A stretch of DNA of 64,000 nucleotides from a virus (IMGVR_UViG_3300023179_000056:1-64000), one strand, 5' to 3'; positions 20,167 through 27,018 are shown, counted from the stretch's first letter. Numbers and translations: made by a program. Notes: generated by a model not told the origin, from the sequence alone.

Positions 20167-20751
20167 TTATGCCTTGAAGTTGAAATTAACATAAAAAGTT
20201 GCCTGTTCTATTGTTGTGTTTGCGTTGATATTTGTAGTATAGTTAATAAAGTTGCTGATGTCTTCTAGTGCTTGTCCATTGCCAGTCCATGTGGGTCTGC
20301 TACGGCTGAGTTCTGTATCCAATCTGTCTAGTGTGAGTAAAGTTGTGCGGAATCGCACCTGATCTTGTTTAAATGCCTGCGATCCTTGTCTGCTGGCATG
20401 ACTCAATGCTGCTTTGCTGATCCTGTATGTTTCCCATCTGGGTTCAGGTGCCACGATACTTTGTTCGCCTACTGATCCAATATTAAAAATCCAACCGGAT
20501 TTATCAGCTGCTTTCCAAGCGTCGTAAACAGCCATGTATAACTGTGTCTGTCCAAAATTGGCCCAGGATTCTTGCGGCGGCCCATCAAATGCGTTATTCA
20601 CAAACACATCATAGTCGAGACTCAACGCTGAGATCTCTTGATGATTTTTTGTGATATCAAACCCATCTGCTCGACTGATGCTCACAGCACCAAATCGCTC
20701 TACTAGGTGTTGTCCTAGCCCTCTGTTACCACCGGTTACTAACATTTTCAT
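20167..20751 (-). CDS. Short-chain dehydrogenase/reductase
   Basis: TGGNRGLG, NNA, NIGS, YRISK catalytic motif; ATGA overlap with the upstream stop. Confidence 0.85.
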   Translation of the reverse strand: MKMLVTGGNRGLGQHLVERFGAVSISRADGFDITKNHQEISALSLDYDVFVNNAFDGPPQESWANFGQTQLYMAVYDAWKAADKSGWIFNIGSVGEQSIVAPEPRWETYRISKAALSHASRQGSQAFKQDQVRFRTTLLTLDRLDTELSRSRPTWTGNGQALEDISNFINYTTNINANTTIEQATFYVNFNFKA

Positions 20752-21851
20752 TTGTAGGATCCTCCTTGATCCCATACTTTGGTAAATTTACTGCCACAAG
20801 TCATTGCACATTCAAATAACCTATGTTCATTAGTCCAACTATCTACTAGGTCGGCCCACATGGTATTTTCAAACACACCAGCCAATGAGTTGTTGTGTAT
20901 GTTAAGATTGTCTAATCCGTATCTTGACAAGAAGTCTGTGATCTGATTACGATCATTGCGCCGGCTCAACGGATTGGCCCCTGGCAAACTACCATCTCTG
21001 AATCTAGCATCATACAAGTTGTGATTGAAAAAATTGCAAGGTAACACTATACCTTGGGCATTGATGGCCACTTTACGACCCATCAAGGCATCACATCGTA
21101 TAGGTGTAGTATCAAAATATTCCTTGACTGATGCATATTGTTTTTTAAGTTCAGGCAAAAACATCATACTGGTATTGCGATAGTCTGGATTCTCTGGAGG
21201 TTCTAACAATTGGTTGCTGTTTTTCACAGGCCATGCGTGGATCTCTTCCATGGTCTCATGATTGAGAAATCTGCCAGTCTTGCGAACTAAAATGTTGTGG
21301 AATCCCATGCTGTTGGCCAGTTGTTTGGCCTGTTCAACTTGATGTTCGTTGTGTCGGAACACAATGTAGTTCCATTGAGCACGACCACCAGCCGCAATAA
21401 ACGACTGTGCATTGGCTATCACCTTGGAATACTTTACATTCTTGCGATACAGATGTAGTGTATCTTCAAGCCCATCAATGCCAAAGTCAATCTGCCCATA
21501 CCCATTCATGATATCAGCTATCTCTGCCCAGTACTCGGGGTCATGCACACCACCATTGGTATGCATGTACAACCATAGTGTGGGATTCTTGCTGCGAAAA
21601 TCACGCAGTATGCCCAGGAAGTCTGGATGCATGATAGGATCGCCATAACTGCCGCAGAAGAATATCTGTCTGAGACGACTGCAAAGATCCGGATCAAATG
21701 CACGATCTATCACAGCACGATCAAGATGTGTCAATGGCATGTAAGGGTTAATGCCGTGGCCGAGATCATTACGTGGGCATTGCGGACAAGCCGCATTGCA
21801 ATATGTGGTTATCTCAATTTGATATTCGTCAATTACAGAAAAATCAAACAA
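20748..21851 (-). CDS. Radical SAM protein with SPASM/twitch-like C-terminus
   Basis: CNAACPQC, GSYGDP, HTNG, IDGL and a C-terminal Cys cluster. Likely TTG start 21851 overlapping the upstream stop, with GAGG RBS. Confidence 0.88.
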   Translation of the reverse strand: MFDFSVIDEYQIEITTYCNAACPQCPRNDLGHGINPYMPLTHLDRAVIDRAFDPDLCSRLRQIFFCGSYGDPIMHPDFLGILRDFRSKNPTLWLYMHTNGGVHDPEYWAEIADIMNGYGQIDFGIDGLEDTLHLYRKNVKYSKVIANAQSFIAAGGRAQWNYIVFRHNEHQVEQAKQLANSMGFHNILVRKTGRFLNHETMEEIHAWPVKNSNQLLEPPENPDYRNTSMMFLPELKKQYASVKEYFDTTPIRCDALMGRKVAINAQGIVLPCNFFNHNLYDARFRDGSLPGANPLSRRNDRNQITDFLSRYGLDNLNIHNNSLAGVFENTMWADLVDSWTNEHRLFECAMTCGSKFTKVWDQGGSYK

Positions 21852-22710
21852 GTTCGACCTCTCTCTGCCATTGGCTACTGAAACTGGTTTTTGAGTCAGT
21901 AGTTCTGCATGTGATTTGGCATATAGGATTAGGTGTATCTGATTTCCAAGTTGTCTGTACTTGTTTGATGTCAGACACAGTGTCAGATCGTGATTCACCT
22001 AGCCAGCAGCAAGGGCTCAATCGACCTTGTGCATCTATGTAAGCACTTTTTTCCTGGAGTGCATGGCAGTTGATTGGGCCTTGTGCAACAATAGGTAGCT
22101 GCCACCCTGTTGGTGTTTGTAAATTTGAATTTGCTAATTCTCGACTGGAGACCTTGGCTCGAAACCATTTAAACCCCATGTCTCTTGCTACCTGTTCGCA
22201 TTCTTCCACTTGATGTTGATTGTGTCGGTACACCAACATGTCCCAATGTGCAAACCCACCTGCTTCTATGTAAGCCTGTGCATTGGCCATCAGCTTGCGC
22301 CAATCCACACCACGACGGTATGTGGCATTGGTATCTTCTAAACCATCAATGCTGAATACAACATAATCACGTGGCTGATCAAACATGCGACCCAGTTCGT
22401 GCCACCAGAATGTGTTTTGTATAGCACCATTGGTGTTCATGCCCAGAGTGATGTCGGGATTGAGTTGTCGGAACCAGCGATAGATATCCAATGTGTGTTT
22501 GGCAGCGGCTGGATCGCCATACACTCCACACATGAACATCTTGTTGAGATTTGAAATCACACGATCACTGAAATGCTTTTGTATCTGCGAGATCGTGAGG
22601 TGATGTTGAAGTCTTTTGTTAAACTCTGGATTGACCTCTCTGGCACACAACGGACATGCCGCTTGGCACACATCTGTGGGCTCTAGATGTAAGACTTTGA
22701 TTCTACGCAA
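21844..22710 (-). CDS. Radical SAM protein (paralogue of the neighbour)
   Basis: CQAACPLC, GVYGDP, NTNG, SIDGLEDT, SPCCW. Likely TTG start 22710 overlapping the gp46 stop. Confidence 0.88.
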   Translation of the reverse strand: MRRIKVLHLEPTDVCQAACPLCAREVNPEFNKRLQHHLTISQIQKHFSDRVISNLNKMFMCGVYGDPAAAKHTLDIYRWFRQLNPDITLGMNTNGAIQNTFWWHELGRMFDQPRDYVVFSIDGLEDTNATYRRGVDWRKLMANAQAYIEAGGFAHWDMLVYRHNQHQVEECEQVARDMGFKWFRAKVSSRELANSNLQTPTGWQLPIVAQGPINCHALQEKSAYIDAQGRLSPCCWLGESRSDTVSDIKQVQTTWKSDTPNPICQITCRTTDSKTSFSSQWQREVELV

Positions 22711-24688
22711 TTTCCACGTCCGTGCTATAACTAGTGAATCCATTCTCTTTCACTACCTTGAGAATGTTCTCTACCCTGCTGGTCAGTTCGTCTCTGTGAC
22801 TTACCAACCAGATGCTCTTGTGTCGCTCTCTGCTCATCTTCTTCAGCAAAGCCAATGCGTTCTCCACACCTTGTGTGTCTAACCCAGAATCGATCATCTC
22901 GTCAATGAACAAGATATTGATAGGTTGATACAGACTTTCCCACACATCGCGGAATGCCCAACTCATGCTCAATATCAGTCTGTTGCGTTCACCACGTGAT
23001 AAGTTGTCAAAGTCCAGTTCACGACCCAGTTCTTCAATGCTCACGGTGAGATCGTTCTGGAACTTCACAGTGTGCGGCAATCCAATTCTATCAAGATAAT
23101 GCGTGAGTCTTGAGTTGAGATAACTCAAGTTCTGATCAATGATCTTCTTACGCACAAAGCTGTCTTTGCTGGTGAGCAGTTTCAACAAGAACTCTTGATG
23201 TTCTTGCACCCTGACAAACTCGTTTAGTGTATCGTAGCTGACCACTTGCAATGCTTGATTCTGCATGTCTGCAATTTGTTCAGCATATGGATCAGTATCT
23301 GCAGACCTTACTGCAAGATCCTTACGTAACGTGTCTACTGTATTTTTGTGATTAAGTGCTTGTTCTAAGTTGTCATAAAATACCACAGGCGCTGTGCCTA
23401 GAGTACCAATCGTTGTTAGTGTGGCTTGATGTTCCAATCGTTGTGTATCATTAGTTAACAATTGCAAAGCTAATTCTTGAAGATTTTTTTCACGCTGTGT
23501 TTTTACAGTATCAAGACTGTTGTCGTGTATTTCGGTACCACAAGCAAAGCATTTGTGTGAAGCAATTTGCCCAAGATCTTTTTGAATCTGATCCACTTGC
23601 TTTTGCAATTTTGCATCGTCAGCATTGATCTGTTTGATCCAGCGATTTGCATCATCTGAAGATTTCTTGCGCACATGATATGCTTCGAGGTCTCTATGTG
23701 ATTGAATTTCTGCCGCAATATCAATATGTTCAAGATCACTGATACCTTGAGTCAACGCAGCCACATCTTCTGCTTGTTTGCGAATCCACAGTACACGACG
23801 CTTTTCCAAACTTTGTATTTGTTCTTCGATACGTTTGTTGGCTTCTTGCACAGCCCGGATACGCAGTTCTTCAGATTGGATAGAATCCTTGGTCTGTCTG
23901 TTGAGTTCTTTGATACGGTCCGCACGTTCGCTCAGTAAGGTGATACCCAGCAGTTGTTCAATAATGGTTCGTTGTTCATTGGCTTTGAGACTCAAAAACG
24001 GTGGTGTATATGTGTTTAATGCAACAATGTGTTGAAACATGTCGTGGCTCATGCCCAACACACGCTCAATGGCTTCTTGTGTTTCACGACTATCGCCTTG
24101 CGCCTCGTCCTGTGCTGCTTGATGTTGATCATTTACATAGAACCGGAGCACGTTGGGTTTGCGACCGCGTTCGATACGATAGTTCTGACTGCCTACAGAA
24201 AAATCAAGACTGACCATCATATGTTTGGCATTGGTCTTGTTCACAAGATTGTCTTTGCGGATGTTGCTCAAGGCTTGACCATACAGGGCATAACTTAATG
24301 CATTGACAATTGTGGTGTTATGCGATAAAATTCCACTGGTAAAATATCGGTGATTGGCCGAATCCACTGAAATATCATACATGTTTTCCATGTGCGGATG
24401 CTGGACCACAGAAGTAACCAATTCTGGTCCAGAATTGGTTTGAATCACTGAAACATTTGGTATGAGATTCTTCACATAGATTTCAGTCAAGTTGTGGTCA
24501 AATACAATATGGTCGTCTGCACACCTTAATGTCAGTCCCGATTGAGTTTGAATGGACCAGACTTGGTATGGTATTGTTTTAAATATCTTAGAAACAGGAT
24601 GCCATCCAGTATCGGTTTCTATTTCTAAATTGTCAAGATCAACGATGTCGACAAATTTTCTAGTTACTGTGTCAGAAATTGAATGCAT
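22703..24688 (-). CDS. gp46: gp46 (SbcC/Rad50-like ATPase) C-terminal part fused to a C-intein (aa 1-124)
   Basis: Intein motifs CADDH, MYDISV and ILSHN|T; then a coiled coil with CFAC zinc hook, LSRGE signature, FIDE Walker B and VSH. Confidence 0.92.
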   Translation of the reverse strand: MHSISDTVTRKFVDIVDLDNLEIETDTGWHPVSKIFKTIPYQVWSIQTQSGLTLRCADDHIVFDHNLTEIYVKNLIPNVSVIQTNSGPELVTSVVQHPHMENMYDISVDSANHRYFTSGILSHNTTIVNALSYALYGQALSNIRKDNLVNKTNAKHMMVSLDFSVGSQNYRIERGRKPNVLRFYVNDQHQAAQDEAQGDSRETQEAIERVLGMSHDMFQHIVALNTYTPPFLSLKANEQRTIIEQLLGITLLSERADRIKELNRQTKDSIQSEELRIRAVQEANKRIEEQIQSLEKRRVLWIRKQAEDVAALTQGISDLEHIDIAAEIQSHRDLEAYHVRKKSSDDANRWIKQINADDAKLQKQVDQIQKDLGQIASHKCFACGTEIHDNSLDTVKTQREKNLQELALQLLTNDTQRLEHQATLTTIGTLGTAPVVFYDNLEQALNHKNTVDTLRKDLAVRSADTDPYAEQIADMQNQALQVVSYDTLNEFVRVQEHQEFLLKLLTSKDSFVRKKIIDQNLSYLNSRLTHYLDRIGLPHTVKFQNDLTVSIEELGRELDFDNLSRGERNRLILSMSWAFRDVWESLYQPINILFIDEMIDSGLDTQGVENALALLKKMSRERHKSIWLVSHRDELTSRVENILKVVKENGFTSYSTDVEIA

Positions 24689-25773
24689 TTTTTAATTACT
24701 TCCTCTTTATTTTTCTTAAAATCACTTTCCCAAATTACCAATACTTCATAGCCTTGATCTCGAGCATATTGTAATTTTATGCGATCTGAATCCCATTTGT
24801 TAGTGGCTCTGAGCTTGGTTCTTGGGTTTATAAATTCAGAAGAATACCTGGCTGGGTTGCAATGCCAAAAATCTCCATTATATTCGATAATTTTATTGTT
24901 GACTTGTATGTCATACACATACTGCTTTTTATTTGAGTTAACCAGGGTAAACTGATGACACACCGTTGGTATGACTTGTTTTATTTCATTGAGTAGAATT
25001 TTTTCAGCCTTGGAAACAGTGATGCCTTTAGATAATTTTAACCGATTAATCCTGGCTTTTTCTTCCTGAGATTTTGCATTTAAAGTATTTTGCCACTTCT
25101 CTTGTCTGTTGTTCCAAACTTTTAATCCTTCTAATTCGCCGTGTTTTTGTATGCATATTTCTTTTGAAAAATATTTTTGGGAATTAGACCGCATGATTGC
25201 TGCTTCTTCATCTGAATGGCCTCTGGCAGTATAGTATTCTATACAACGCTTAGAGGTTGCCCGACGAATGTCGGTAGTAGCTGCATTGTTTGCTCCTTTT
25301 TTATTATTTTTAAATTTAGCATCAACAGCGAGCTGCTTGGCAATTTCTTGTGTATATCCCTTTTTAATCCAGTATTCTGGTCGAATTGGTCTACGACTGT
25401 TTCGTTCAAAGTCTGCTTCAATTTCCGTATAGTTATTACCAGTAACTGGATTGATTTTTTTGGTCCAAAATTCCATTGAATATGGACTATCACGATTTGC
25501 TTTTTTATTCACAATTTGCATGTGTGCTGCGGCATTTACTTTGGCTTGTATGCTGTCCCATCCTCGGTCGGTCCAATATTTTGGACTTCCTTGGGATAAG
25601 TTGGTGCAAGGAAACATACTATATGCTAATTTCATGCCAGTACGCATACATTTGATATCTGGTGCATTTATTAGTGCATTGAACATAAATTCTCGTTTTT
25701 TACCATCAAGATTTTTAATCCGTTGGTCTAAAATTTTATTCACTATCTCTAGTTTGCTCAGATTTGATGCCAT
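24664..25773 (-). CDS. Vsr-like (PD-D/ExK) homing endonuclease between the split-intein halves
   Basis: C-terminal YDIQ..IIEYNGDFWHCNP..D..K..GYEVLVIWE; N-terminal YW..RG....A repeats. Confidence 0.8.
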   Translation of the reverse strand: MASNLSKLEIVNKILDQRIKNLDGKKREFMFNALINAPDIKCMRTGMKLAYSMFPCTNLSQGSPKYWTDRGWDSIQAKVNAAAHMQIVNKKANRDSPYSMEFWTKKINPVTGNNYTEIEADFERNSRRPIRPEYWIKKGYTQEIAKQLAVDAKFKNNKKGANNAATTDIRRATSKRCIEYYTARGHSDEEAAIMRSNSQKYFSKEICIQKHGELEGLKVWNNRQEKWQNTLNAKSQEEKARINRLKLSKGITVSKAEKILLNEIKQVIPTVCHQFTLVNSNKKQYVYDIQVNNKIIEYNGDFWHCNPARYSSEFINPRTKLRATNKWDSDRIKLQYARDQGYEVLVIWESDFKKNKEEVIKKCIQFLTQ

Positions 25774-26005
25774 GATATAGTTCTCCCATAGTTAGTTCGG
25801 ATATTTCCCCTGTTAGGGTATTACGAACTTTTATAATAGTATTTATATCAACACACTTGCCTGTGCCATTGCGGGAGCCGTCCCCTCCCATATCCAAGTT
25901 TTCGCCTAGCACCAGCGTGAGATCGCTGCGATCAAAGTCAATGGCCTGCGTGGTGTTGCCCACGCTCATGAAGTTTTTTACTGTGAGATCACGTAGATGT
26001 ATCAT
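25736..26005 (-). CDS. gp46: gp46 N-terminal part (50 aa) fused to a 39-aa N-intein
   Basis: LTVKNFMSVGN...SRNGTGK|CVDINTII: Walker A interrupted by a Cys1 intein block A. Confidence 0.9.
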   Translation of the reverse strand: MIHLRDLTVKNFMSVGNTTQAIDFDRSDLTLVLGENLDMGGDGSRNGTGKCVDINTIIKVRNTLTGEISELTMGELYHGIKSEQTRDSE

Positions 26006-27018
26006 AGATTCTGATAAATTTTTAACAATAATTTGTTATCGTAGAATTCAGATTCAATGTTAGTGATCTGATCTGTAACAATCTGATCCACTGATTCAAA
26101 ACGTATCTCGCCAGGTGCTAGATCTGTGTCCACAGATGAATTCTTGTTGGGTATCAATGACATTTCTCTTAGATTGTAATCTTTAATGTATGTTTCTTTG
26201 ATAAAGTTGGCTTCTTCGTATGAAATCTCAATATCCAAGTTTACACGAACATGCATTCGAGGTGCAAGCAATGCGGCTGCATTGTCGATGATATTGGCCA
26301 GTCCTAACACACGATAACGTGGTTGATCAGGCCAAGCGTGATACACAGGGGTTTTACCCCATTCTATAATAGTAAGCCCACGCTCATCGTCGCCTGCGTC
26401 GGCATAGTTATGTGGAAATGCATTGCCAATATAAGTGATGTTCTTCTTGGTCTGACGTTTGTGAAAGTGCCCAGTGAAAACATGTTCAAAGTTTGAAAAG
26501 TCTTCTCTACGCACCTCACCGTGATCCGGCATTTCCACCATGGCATTCATCAAGTACCCGGGAAGTTCAAAATGCCCAAACATATATTTGCCTTTTAGTT
26601 TGGGAATACGCTTGTAGTCATCACCCACAAGCCAAGGAGCAATCACCACGTCACCGGCTGTGACCCAATCATTGCAAATTTCAACATTGGGCAAATGGCG
26701 AGCCCATTCAACACTTTGAATATCTCTTTTGTCACGATAATACAAGTCGTGATTGCCTGGAATGAAATACACACGCTCAAAATTTGCATTCATGTGCTCT
26801 AGACATTTTAGAGAATAATTTAACGTAAGGATATTAATTGATGCTCGATTATTATGATAATCGCCAAGAAAAAAACAAGTCTCGCATCCTTCTTCTTTTG
26901 CTTTTTTAACCATCCATTGAATGAATCCCCAACAGTCTTCGTTATGTAAGGTACTGTTAGATTTAAGACCCAGATGCAGATCAGTAAAAATTGCAGCCTT
27001 TTTAAATAGATTACTCAT
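26002..27018 (-). CDS. gp47: Recombination nuclease subunit (SbcD/Mre11-like)
   Basis: DLHLG, GD, GNHD and GHFH phosphoesterase motifs. Confidence 0.92.
   Translation of the reverse strand: MSNLFKKAAIFTDLHLGLKSNSTLHNEDCWGFIQWMVKKAKEEGCETCFFLGDYHNNRASINILTLNYSLKCLEHMNANFERVYFIPGNHDLYYRDKRDIQSVEWARHLPNVEICNDWVTAGDVVIAPWLVGDDYKRIPKLKGKYMFGHFELPGYLMNAMVEMPDHGEVRREDFSNFEHVFTGHFHKRQTKKNITYIGNAFPHNYADAGDDERGLTIIEWGKTPVYHAWPDQPRYRVLGLANIIDNAAALLAPRMHVRVNLDIEISYEEANFIKETYIKDYNLREMSLIPNKNSSVDTDLAPGEIRFESVDQIVTDQITNIESEFYDNKLLLKIYQNL

Follow-up and report, generated by a model that had tools for sequence, protein, structure and literature searches.

How might a phage make a recombination ATPase from a gene that is broken in two inside its Walker A motif, with an endonuclease gene lodged between the pieces? 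This question is raised by a stretch of 64,000 nucleotides of viral DNA (IMGVR_UViG_3300023179_000056:1-64000; hereafter the window), which belongs to a 91.9-kb contig from an incomplete genome. Here, gp46, the gene for a Rad50/SbcC-like ATPase, is found as two half-genes, the first ending and the second beginning with a part of an intein, and a gene for a Vsr-like endonuclease stands between them. We consider it highly probable that the locus is a "fractured gene", in which a class-1 split intein and a free-standing Vsr-like homing endonuclease occupy gp46 precisely between the Lys and the Thr of Walker A in an uncultured T4-like giant lake phage, and in which the two halves are trans-spliced.

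Three open reading frames (ORFs), all on the minus strand, make up the locus: an N-half of 89 residues (25736..26005), an endonuclease of 369 residues (24664..25773) and a C-half of 661 residues (22703..24688). The N-half consists of 50 residues of gp46 ending in GDGSRNGTGK and a 39-residue N-intein (IntN) that begins with Cys; it closes with a TAA stop codon at 25736-25738. The C-half begins MHSISDT... and includes the motif CADDH; its first 124 residues, the C-intein (IntC), end in SHN, after which the protein continues as TTIVNALSYALYG. Since their starts lie 1317 nucleotides apart, a multiple of three, the two halves are in one frame, whereas the endonuclease, starting 232 nucleotides from the N-half, is in a different frame from it. 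The endonuclease ORF overlaps the N-half by 38 nucleotides (25736-25773), with the last nine residues of the N-intein forming a tail coded in this overlap, and the C-half by 25 nucleotides (24664-24688). Because it overlaps the N-half, its gene has no leader or hairpin upstream; a GGGAG Shine–Dalgarno sequence lies 9 nucleotides before its ATG, within the N-intein coding sequence. The stop of gp47 and the start of the gp46 N-half likewise overlap, by 4 nucleotides (ATGA). An earlier note, made from the sequence alone, had given the coordinates of the two half-gene ORFs and of the intein parts and the lengths of the overlaps, and had placed the halves in one frame with the endonuclease outside it; the ORF listing of the window agrees with it on every coordinate and on the spacing of the half-gene starts. 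A scan for sigma-70 promoters and terminators returned sites no more numerous than in shuffled sequence. Read-through of the N-half stop by an amber-suppressor tRNA was also considered and rejected, since that stop is a TAA codon and the ORF that follows lies in a different frame.

Table 1. Features of the gp47–gp46 locus in the window
Feature	Coordinates	Strand	Evidence and remarks
gp47 / SbcD-Mre11-like nuclease subunit	26002..27018	-	ORF; Pfam Metallophos E 3e-8
gp46 N-extein, 50 aa, Walker A GTGK at its end	25856..26005	-	alignment with intact gp46; 100% amino acid identity to intein-less L003; PHROG 77 SbcC-like
N-intein, 39 aa (CVDINT...RDSE)	25739..25855	-	Cys1, two strands and first helix (block A / N1)
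Endonuclease gene, free-standing, 369 aa	24664..25773	-	helical N-terminal part and Vsr-like catalytic domain (residues ~251-369)
C-intein, 124 aa	24317..24688	-	blocks N2-N4 with block B His (CADDH), block F (MYDISVD), block G (ILSHN)
gp46 C-extein, 537 aa, first residue Thr+1 (Walker A Thr)	22703..24316	-	PHROG 77 E 1e-81; CxxC zinc hook, signature and Walker B region

The site of insertion was defined by comparison with genes that lack the element. The intact gp46 proteins of Pseudomonas phage PA5oct and Sinorhizobium phage Phosso, respectively 48% and 45% identical to that of the window, run uninterrupted through ...NGTGKT..., and in alignment with them the N-half matches up to the GK and the C-half from the residue after SHN. 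Joining the exteins restores the Walker A loop as ...NGTGK-TT... (here and below the hyphen marks the junction) and gives a predicted spliced gp46 of 587 residues, compared to 584 in PA5oct. A scan of viral contigs with a gp46 profile returned 80 loci, about 70 of which are contiguous, intein-less genes reading ...NGTGK-TT... without a gap; these include the closest relatives of the gene (L003-L006), whose protein identity to it is 92-100% in the N-extein and 88-90% in the C-extein. Thus, the insertion is a presence/absence polymorphism exactly between the Lys and the Thr of Walker A, and it is precise and in frame with respect to the intein-less alleles, as expected of an intein at a conserved site. 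The claim that the exteins, when joined, give an intact Walker A is borne out by both phages and the roughly 70 environmental alleles. Beyond the restored Walker A, the host gene shows the other features of the gp46/Rad50/SbcC ATPases, namely a CxxC zinc hook (C380 and C383, both invariant), the signature and Walker B, and a gp47 gene (Metallophos) directly upstream. No second copy of gp46, the intein or the endonuclease was found in the 91.9-kb contig; a weak N-intein-like tblastn match at contig positions 71944-72033 (E 0.25) is probably a chance match.

The residues between the exteins match the motif set of a class-1 intein: Cys1, the block B His, block F (MYDISVD), block G (HN) and Thr+1. 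The Cys stands directly after GTGK in the window, and Cys1 is present in all 120 of the best homologous N-half clusters, whose N-inteins span 32-46 residues. Among the best C-half clusters, SHN-T is kept in 119 of 120 and CAD[DTE]H in 116 of 120, and the block B His60 is invariant in sets of 26 and five aligned relatives. We modelled the fold on a relative (L085) whose halves are separated only by TAA and one codon, reading the stop as Gln. The resulting read-through model (predicted local distance difference test, pLDDT, 91.9; predicted template-modelling score, pTM, 0.84) assigns residues 1-38 to strands and the first helix (helix 23-38), and its sole disordered, low-confidence stretch is the linker 42-52, exactly at the split point. 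A Foldseek search with this model found VidaL (6vgv) as the best match (E 4e-9, template-modelling score 0.81 on the target) among 64 PDB matches at E <= 0.001; those listed are inteins or intein-like HINT domains, including Cat (6dsl). A profile of five C-inteins, that of the window included, retrieved from the PDB VidaL (6e-9), gp41-1 (1.5e-5), CatC (1.8e-4) and NrdJ-1 (2.3e-4). As modelled, then, the intein is a HINT domain with VidaL, gp41-1 and Cat-TerL as its nearest solved relatives. Its 39-residue IntN holds block A only, its 124-residue IntC holds blocks B, F and G, and in the model the break falls after the first α-helix, i.e., at position S2. The earlier note had described just such an atypical split of the large-terminase (TerL) type, with a 39-residue N-intein and a 124-residue C-intein, and the motifs, the fold of L085 and the profile matches all bear it out. 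In its host gene the intein departs from that type: it sits in gp46 and not in a large terminase, and the TerL-borne homologues form a sister set.

The endonuclease has homologues in 276 clusters of about 366 residues. D288, E297, W303, H304, D330, W348 and E349 are invariant in 32 aligned homologues, while F302 of the F302-W303-H304 motif is not; the ORF of the window is full length and keeps every family-invariant residue. D288, E297, F302-W303-H304 and D330 correspond to D51, the F62 position, F67-W68-H69 and D97 of Vsr. An invariant Glu at the position of Vsr Phe62, seven residues before the catalytic His, is part of the published motif set of Vsr-like homing endonucleases (PMC2677866). 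A profile of the family had three Vsr entries as its sole PDB matches (E 0.11), with GxFWH, the second Asp and VWE aligned. In an AlphaFold (AF2) model (pLDDT 86.2), residues 251-369 superimpose by VIA-align on Vsr (1cw0; Z 11.7, root-mean-square deviation 2.6, 111 aligned residues), on the catalytic domain of I-Bth0305I (3r3p; Z 11.1, root-mean-square deviation 3.5, 93 aligned) and on NGO0050 (3hrl; Z 10.6). The model thus confirms a Vsr-like catalytic domain, as the earlier note had proposed for the ORF between the halves, and the invariant residues agree with it. Foldseek with the whole 369-residue model gave no match at E <= 0.001, and phmmer with the endonuclease alone against the PDB gave chance matches only. 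The helical N-terminal 250 residues contain repeats of the type YWxxRGWxxxEA and had no clear structural match by VIA-align. At two other loci (L067:56-676 and L035:3262-3858), an intein-less gp46 has a free-standing ORF for an HNH-type endonuclease immediately upstream. The ORF in L067 and the N-terminal part of the Vsr-like endonuclease have a helical repeat module in common (FSK..CI.KHGE..G...RQDKWQ.TLN), which points to the shuffling of a DNA-binding module among nucleases of different types.

Comparison with the nearest intein-bearing relative (L083; IMG/VR contig UViG_3300033064_002377) revealed a steep contrast between the intein and its surroundings. Nucleotide identity is 92% in the N-intein (synonymous divergence, dS, 0.08) and 96.5% in the C-intein (dS 0.12), compared to 64% in the N-extein (dS saturated), 82% in the C-extein (dS 1.34) and 78% in gp47 (dS 2.9), and the tract of high identity ends at the intein boundaries. 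With intein DNA far more alike than its flanks, the element is far younger than the divergence of the two host genomes, and has therefore been horizontally transferred; by this nucleotide comparison, the element is mobile.

The relatives also differ in how much of the element they retain. L083 itself has a clean internal deletion of 912 bp (L083:3253-3872; window 24769-25680) that removes endonuclease codons ~32-335, with an overlap of about 7 nucleotides at the junction, and both of its intein halves are intact. Judged from this gene structure, L083 represents a natural step between the fractured gene and a split intein that lacks the endonuclease. In L123 (L123:3333-3872), the endonuclease is reduced to a remnant of 19 residues; in L085 (L085:3366-3869) and L150-152 (L150:3357-3869), there is none and the gene is still split by a stop codon. 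The halves of L085, L150 and L123 are in one frame, apart by only the stop codon and 1-20 codons. P0004 (749 residues) and P0052 are unbroken: each is a contiguous gp46 that carries a mini-intein at this position, and both retain the Met of the C-half start. Read as stages, the empty, endonuclease-bearing, endonuclease-deleted, endonuclease-free split and contiguous forms cover every stage that the homing cycle and the gene-breaking model of Dassa and colleagues predict. In a second study's metagenome (run X2, compared over window positions 24200-25700), we observed a variant of the C-intein and endonuclease that is 94-96% identical, and one X2 contig departs from the window beyond 24772, near the boundary of the L083 deletion; endonuclease-deleted and endonuclease-bearing variants may coexist there.

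We propose the following mechanism for these parts. Lying within the intein coding sequence after the first helix (S2), the endonuclease gene breaks the host gene into gp46(1-50) with IntN (39 residues) and IntC (124 residues) with gp46(51-587). The two polypeptides would associate via their intein halves and rebuild the HINT fold; Cys1 would then form the thioester, Thr+1 would attack it in the transesterification, and cyclisation of Asn124 would release a gp46 of 587 residues whose GTGKTT P-loop is intact. Were there no splicing, the P-loop would contain 163 foreign residues. The endonuclease would be translated from its own Shine–Dalgarno sequence and start codon inside the N-half, and the 3' end of its gene would supply the start codon of the C-half via the 25-nucleotide overlap, so that their translation is possibly coupled. 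It presumably cuts the intein-less gp46 alleles of co-infecting phages, whereupon repair would copy in the whole element. The analysis itself establishes the layout and precise site of the element, its folds and family ties, its conserved catalytic residues and its horizontal transfer, whereas splicing and the cleavage specificity are inferred. Trans-splicing of the gp46 halves is very likely, and the case for it is strong, given that 119-120 of 120 relatives keep Cys1, the block B His and the terminal HN-T. Trypsin is unsuited to detecting a junction peptide, because its cleavage falls exactly at GK-T.

Several observations weigh against this interpretation. In block B, Ala stands in place of the Thr of TxxH (CADDH), giving AxxH. 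Pfam Intein_splicing, a profile check of the kind that the earlier note had called for, scores the C-half of the window at only E 0.5. The HINT fold was modelled on a relative 58-65% identical and not on the window's own two halves. The ratio of nonsynonymous to synonymous substitution rates (dN/dS) of the N-intein against L083 is about 1, over only 117 nucleotides that are partly dual-coding. The spliced gp46 product is itself a prediction from the genes, and no RNA runs are listed as containing the locus. Moreover, the contig covers only part of the genome, the rest of which may hold a second intact gp46.

These points bear on how other explanations fare. The intein halves might be a dimerisation module only, with the gp46 pieces associating non-covalently and working without splicing. 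Non-splicing yet functional fractured phage genes do exist, such as nrdA of phage Aeh1, whose fractured NrdA has interaction domains of its own (PMC3045599; cited in PMC2677866), and the case for splicing at the present locus comes from sequence. However, the break lies within the P-loop, with 163 intein residues between GK and T, because of which non-covalent assembly is unlikely to yield an active ATPase; retention of the catalytic residues across the relatives would be unexpected were the chemistry dispensable, and the same intein occurs in contiguous forms (P0004) that must splice in cis. We thus regard association without splicing as very unlikely. That the element has inactivated gp46, leaving the halves as decaying remnants, would be easier to accept if a second copy lay elsewhere, which is conceivable for an incomplete contig. 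Yet both half-ORFs are full length, dN/dS against L083 is 0.046 for the extein and 0.115 for the C-intein, intact relatives number in the hundreds, and L083 lost its endonuclease gene while keeping both halves intact; a dead gp46 is accordingly extremely improbable. The earlier note had allowed that the three ORFs might be one contiguous frame broken by assembly errors; such an error, or one of sequencing, would mean a single gp46-intein-endonuclease frame, and we found nothing in its favor. The endonuclease, with its own start and Shine–Dalgarno sequence, is in a different frame, the five-part layout with its overlaps recurs in about 40 independent viral contigs, and the N-half in 606 clusters; further, a 2,866-nucleotide Logan contig from a lake-water sample, the likely source, covers 24200-25985 with 0 differences and no gaps. 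Such an error is excluded by these data, and we treat its probability as negligible.

A different kind of doubt concerns the endonuclease, which might no longer home to this site, being inactive, domesticated, or a free-standing nuclease with another target, even as the split intein works. Decay after fixation is common among homing endonuclease genes, relatives in which the gene is deleted are at hand (L083, L123 and L085), and the cleavage specificity in the window is one that we infer. On the other side stand the full-length ORF with every residue invariant in the 32 aligned homologues, the recent movement of the element between diverged genomes, and the abundance of empty sites in close relatives, a circumstance in which the activity of a homing enzyme is maintained by selection. 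Loss of homing is hence unlikely, and we retain the reading of the locus as a trans-spliced fractured gene with a homing endonuclease.

We then surveyed the spread of the intein family. Homologues of the N-half form 606 clusters of about 89 residues in public data, and those of the C-intein form 325 clusters. A scan of viral contigs with just the C-intein as query returned 80 loci. About 40 of these have the full layout of gp47, N-extein, N-intein, endonuclease, C-intein and C-extein, with 24 distinct gp46-borne C-intein sequences among them. About 20 others carry this arrangement in the large-terminase gene, again at Walker A (RQxGK-T); their C-inteins are 40-54% identical to that of the window, and their homologous endonuclease shows 19-41% identity. 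In nine further loci the intein lies in a DnaB-like helicase at GK-S (Pfam DnaB_C E 4e-20); for the terminase and helicase sites taken together, identity to the intein of the window is likewise 40-54%. The helicase loci (L135-L137, L142-L144, L146, L148 and L155) often carry a homologous Vsr-like endonuclease, and in L135-L137, L143 and L144 the helicase gene is located a few kb upstream of gp47 and gp46. Among GenBank phage genomes, the C-intein matched 320 records at no more than 44% identity, the 30 best of which are all terminase genes; megablast of the locus against GenBank phages gave no match. Thus, one intein family occupies the P-loop of three different ATPases, namely gp46, TerL and a DnaB-like helicase. 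In a FastTree tree, most gp46 inteins group together, with one TerL intein nested among them and one gp46 intein among the TerL inteins, a pattern of host switches that is indicative only, as the tree was read without evaluation of support values.

We tentatively suggest, as a possible though rather doubtful scenario, that one intein and endonuclease lineage hops between the Walker A sites (GK-T/S) of three unrelated phage ATPases, the large terminase, gp46/Rad50 and the DnaB-like helicase, since the Vsr-like endonuclease or the repair step might tolerate the short P-loop coding sequence that they have in common. If this were true, it would be a natural case of motif-directed ectopic homing, and it would supply mutually diverged short-IntN Cys1/Thr+1 split inteins as possible orthogonal ligation tools.

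Directly downstream of gp46 in the window (20748-22743, minus strand) are two radical SAM/SPASM-like ORFs of 416 and 299 residues, the second of which overlaps the end of gp46 by 41 nucleotides. In contrast to the 4-nucleotide overlap in the window, the gp47-gp46 junction of relatives holds 0.8-2.5 kb of variable cargo comprising radical-SAM-like, GDSL-like and other ORFs (L003:3027-3854, L005:2555-3864, L007:1380-3790, L012:1765-3854, L016:2623-3854 and L035:2502-3858). The junction appears to be an insertion hot spot.

In 2009, Dassa, London, Stoddard, Schueler-Furman and Pietrokovski reported fractured genes accompanied by Vsr-like endonucleases (PMC2677866). Their terminase locus from Lake Gatun was "fractured at an unusual point", with a 122-residue C-part containing all the N motifs except N1. 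The window shares with that locus the co-oriented, adjacent half-genes of a DNA-metabolism gene bearing split-intein parts, with a free-standing Vsr-like endonuclease ORF between them, as well as the break at the same unusual point, with a C-part of 124 residues. In both, the 3' end of the endonuclease gene overlaps the downstream half, by 6-69 bp in the loci of 2009 and by 25 nucleotides here. The window differs in that the endonuclease also overlaps the upstream half (38 nucleotides), with no untranslated leader or hairpin, and in its host: gp46 is outside their eight host enzyme types, and the nearest case in their report is a fractured SbcD-like gene without an intein (PMC2677866). The endonuclease resembles I-Bth0305I (Taylor et al. 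2011, PMC3239194; 3r3p) in having a C-terminal Vsr-fold catalytic domain with D...E...FWH...D and a long, presumably DNA-binding N-terminal region. The identity of the two catalytic domains is about 17%, and the gene for I-Bth0305I sits in a group I intron within recA, whereas the enzyme of the window is free-standing inside a split intein.

The type of element is thus known, its host gene gp46 is new to the literature we searched, and the surprise is moderate. No description of gp46, SbcC or Rad50 as the host of a split intein or fractured gene was found in that literature. The earlier note had itself stated that fractured genes and short-N/long-C split inteins had been described, in agreement with PMC2677866, PMC11766414 and PMC13014065; the novelty is nevertheless smaller than it implied, for the intein family was already known (the terminase of Dassa and colleagues, VidaL and Cat-TerL) and metagenomes contain the gp46 form very commonly. 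With this locus, a recombination ATPase (gp46/Rad50-like) joins the hosts of fractured genes, and the relatives of the locus offer a compact natural series for the homing cycle and the gene-breaking model.

Natural split inteins with a short IntN, few of which are known, are sought for protein labelling, and the locus adds one to their number. Those of the TerL type have been characterized biochemically, e.g., AceL-TerL (25/104 residues), GOS-TerL (37/115), the consensus Cat-TerL (30/104) and VidaL with its 16-residue IntN (PMC11766414, PMC13014065), and S2 is the split position of AceL-TerL and GOS-TerL (PMC13014065). The intein of the window has in common with them the short IntN, the long IntC with block B and the S2 split, and the similarity extends to a homologous endonuclease and 40-54% C-intein identity in TerL-borne relatives. 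To the solved TerL inteins it is only ~20-25% identical. Its IntN of 39 residues lies slightly above the published natural range of 15-37 residues (PMC13014065). Finally, in the published short-IntN inteins a Cys or a Ser is found at both position 1 and position +1, as in the Cys1/Cys+1 of AceL and Cat and the Ser1/Cys+1 of GOS, whereas the intein in gp46 combines Cys1 with Thr+1.

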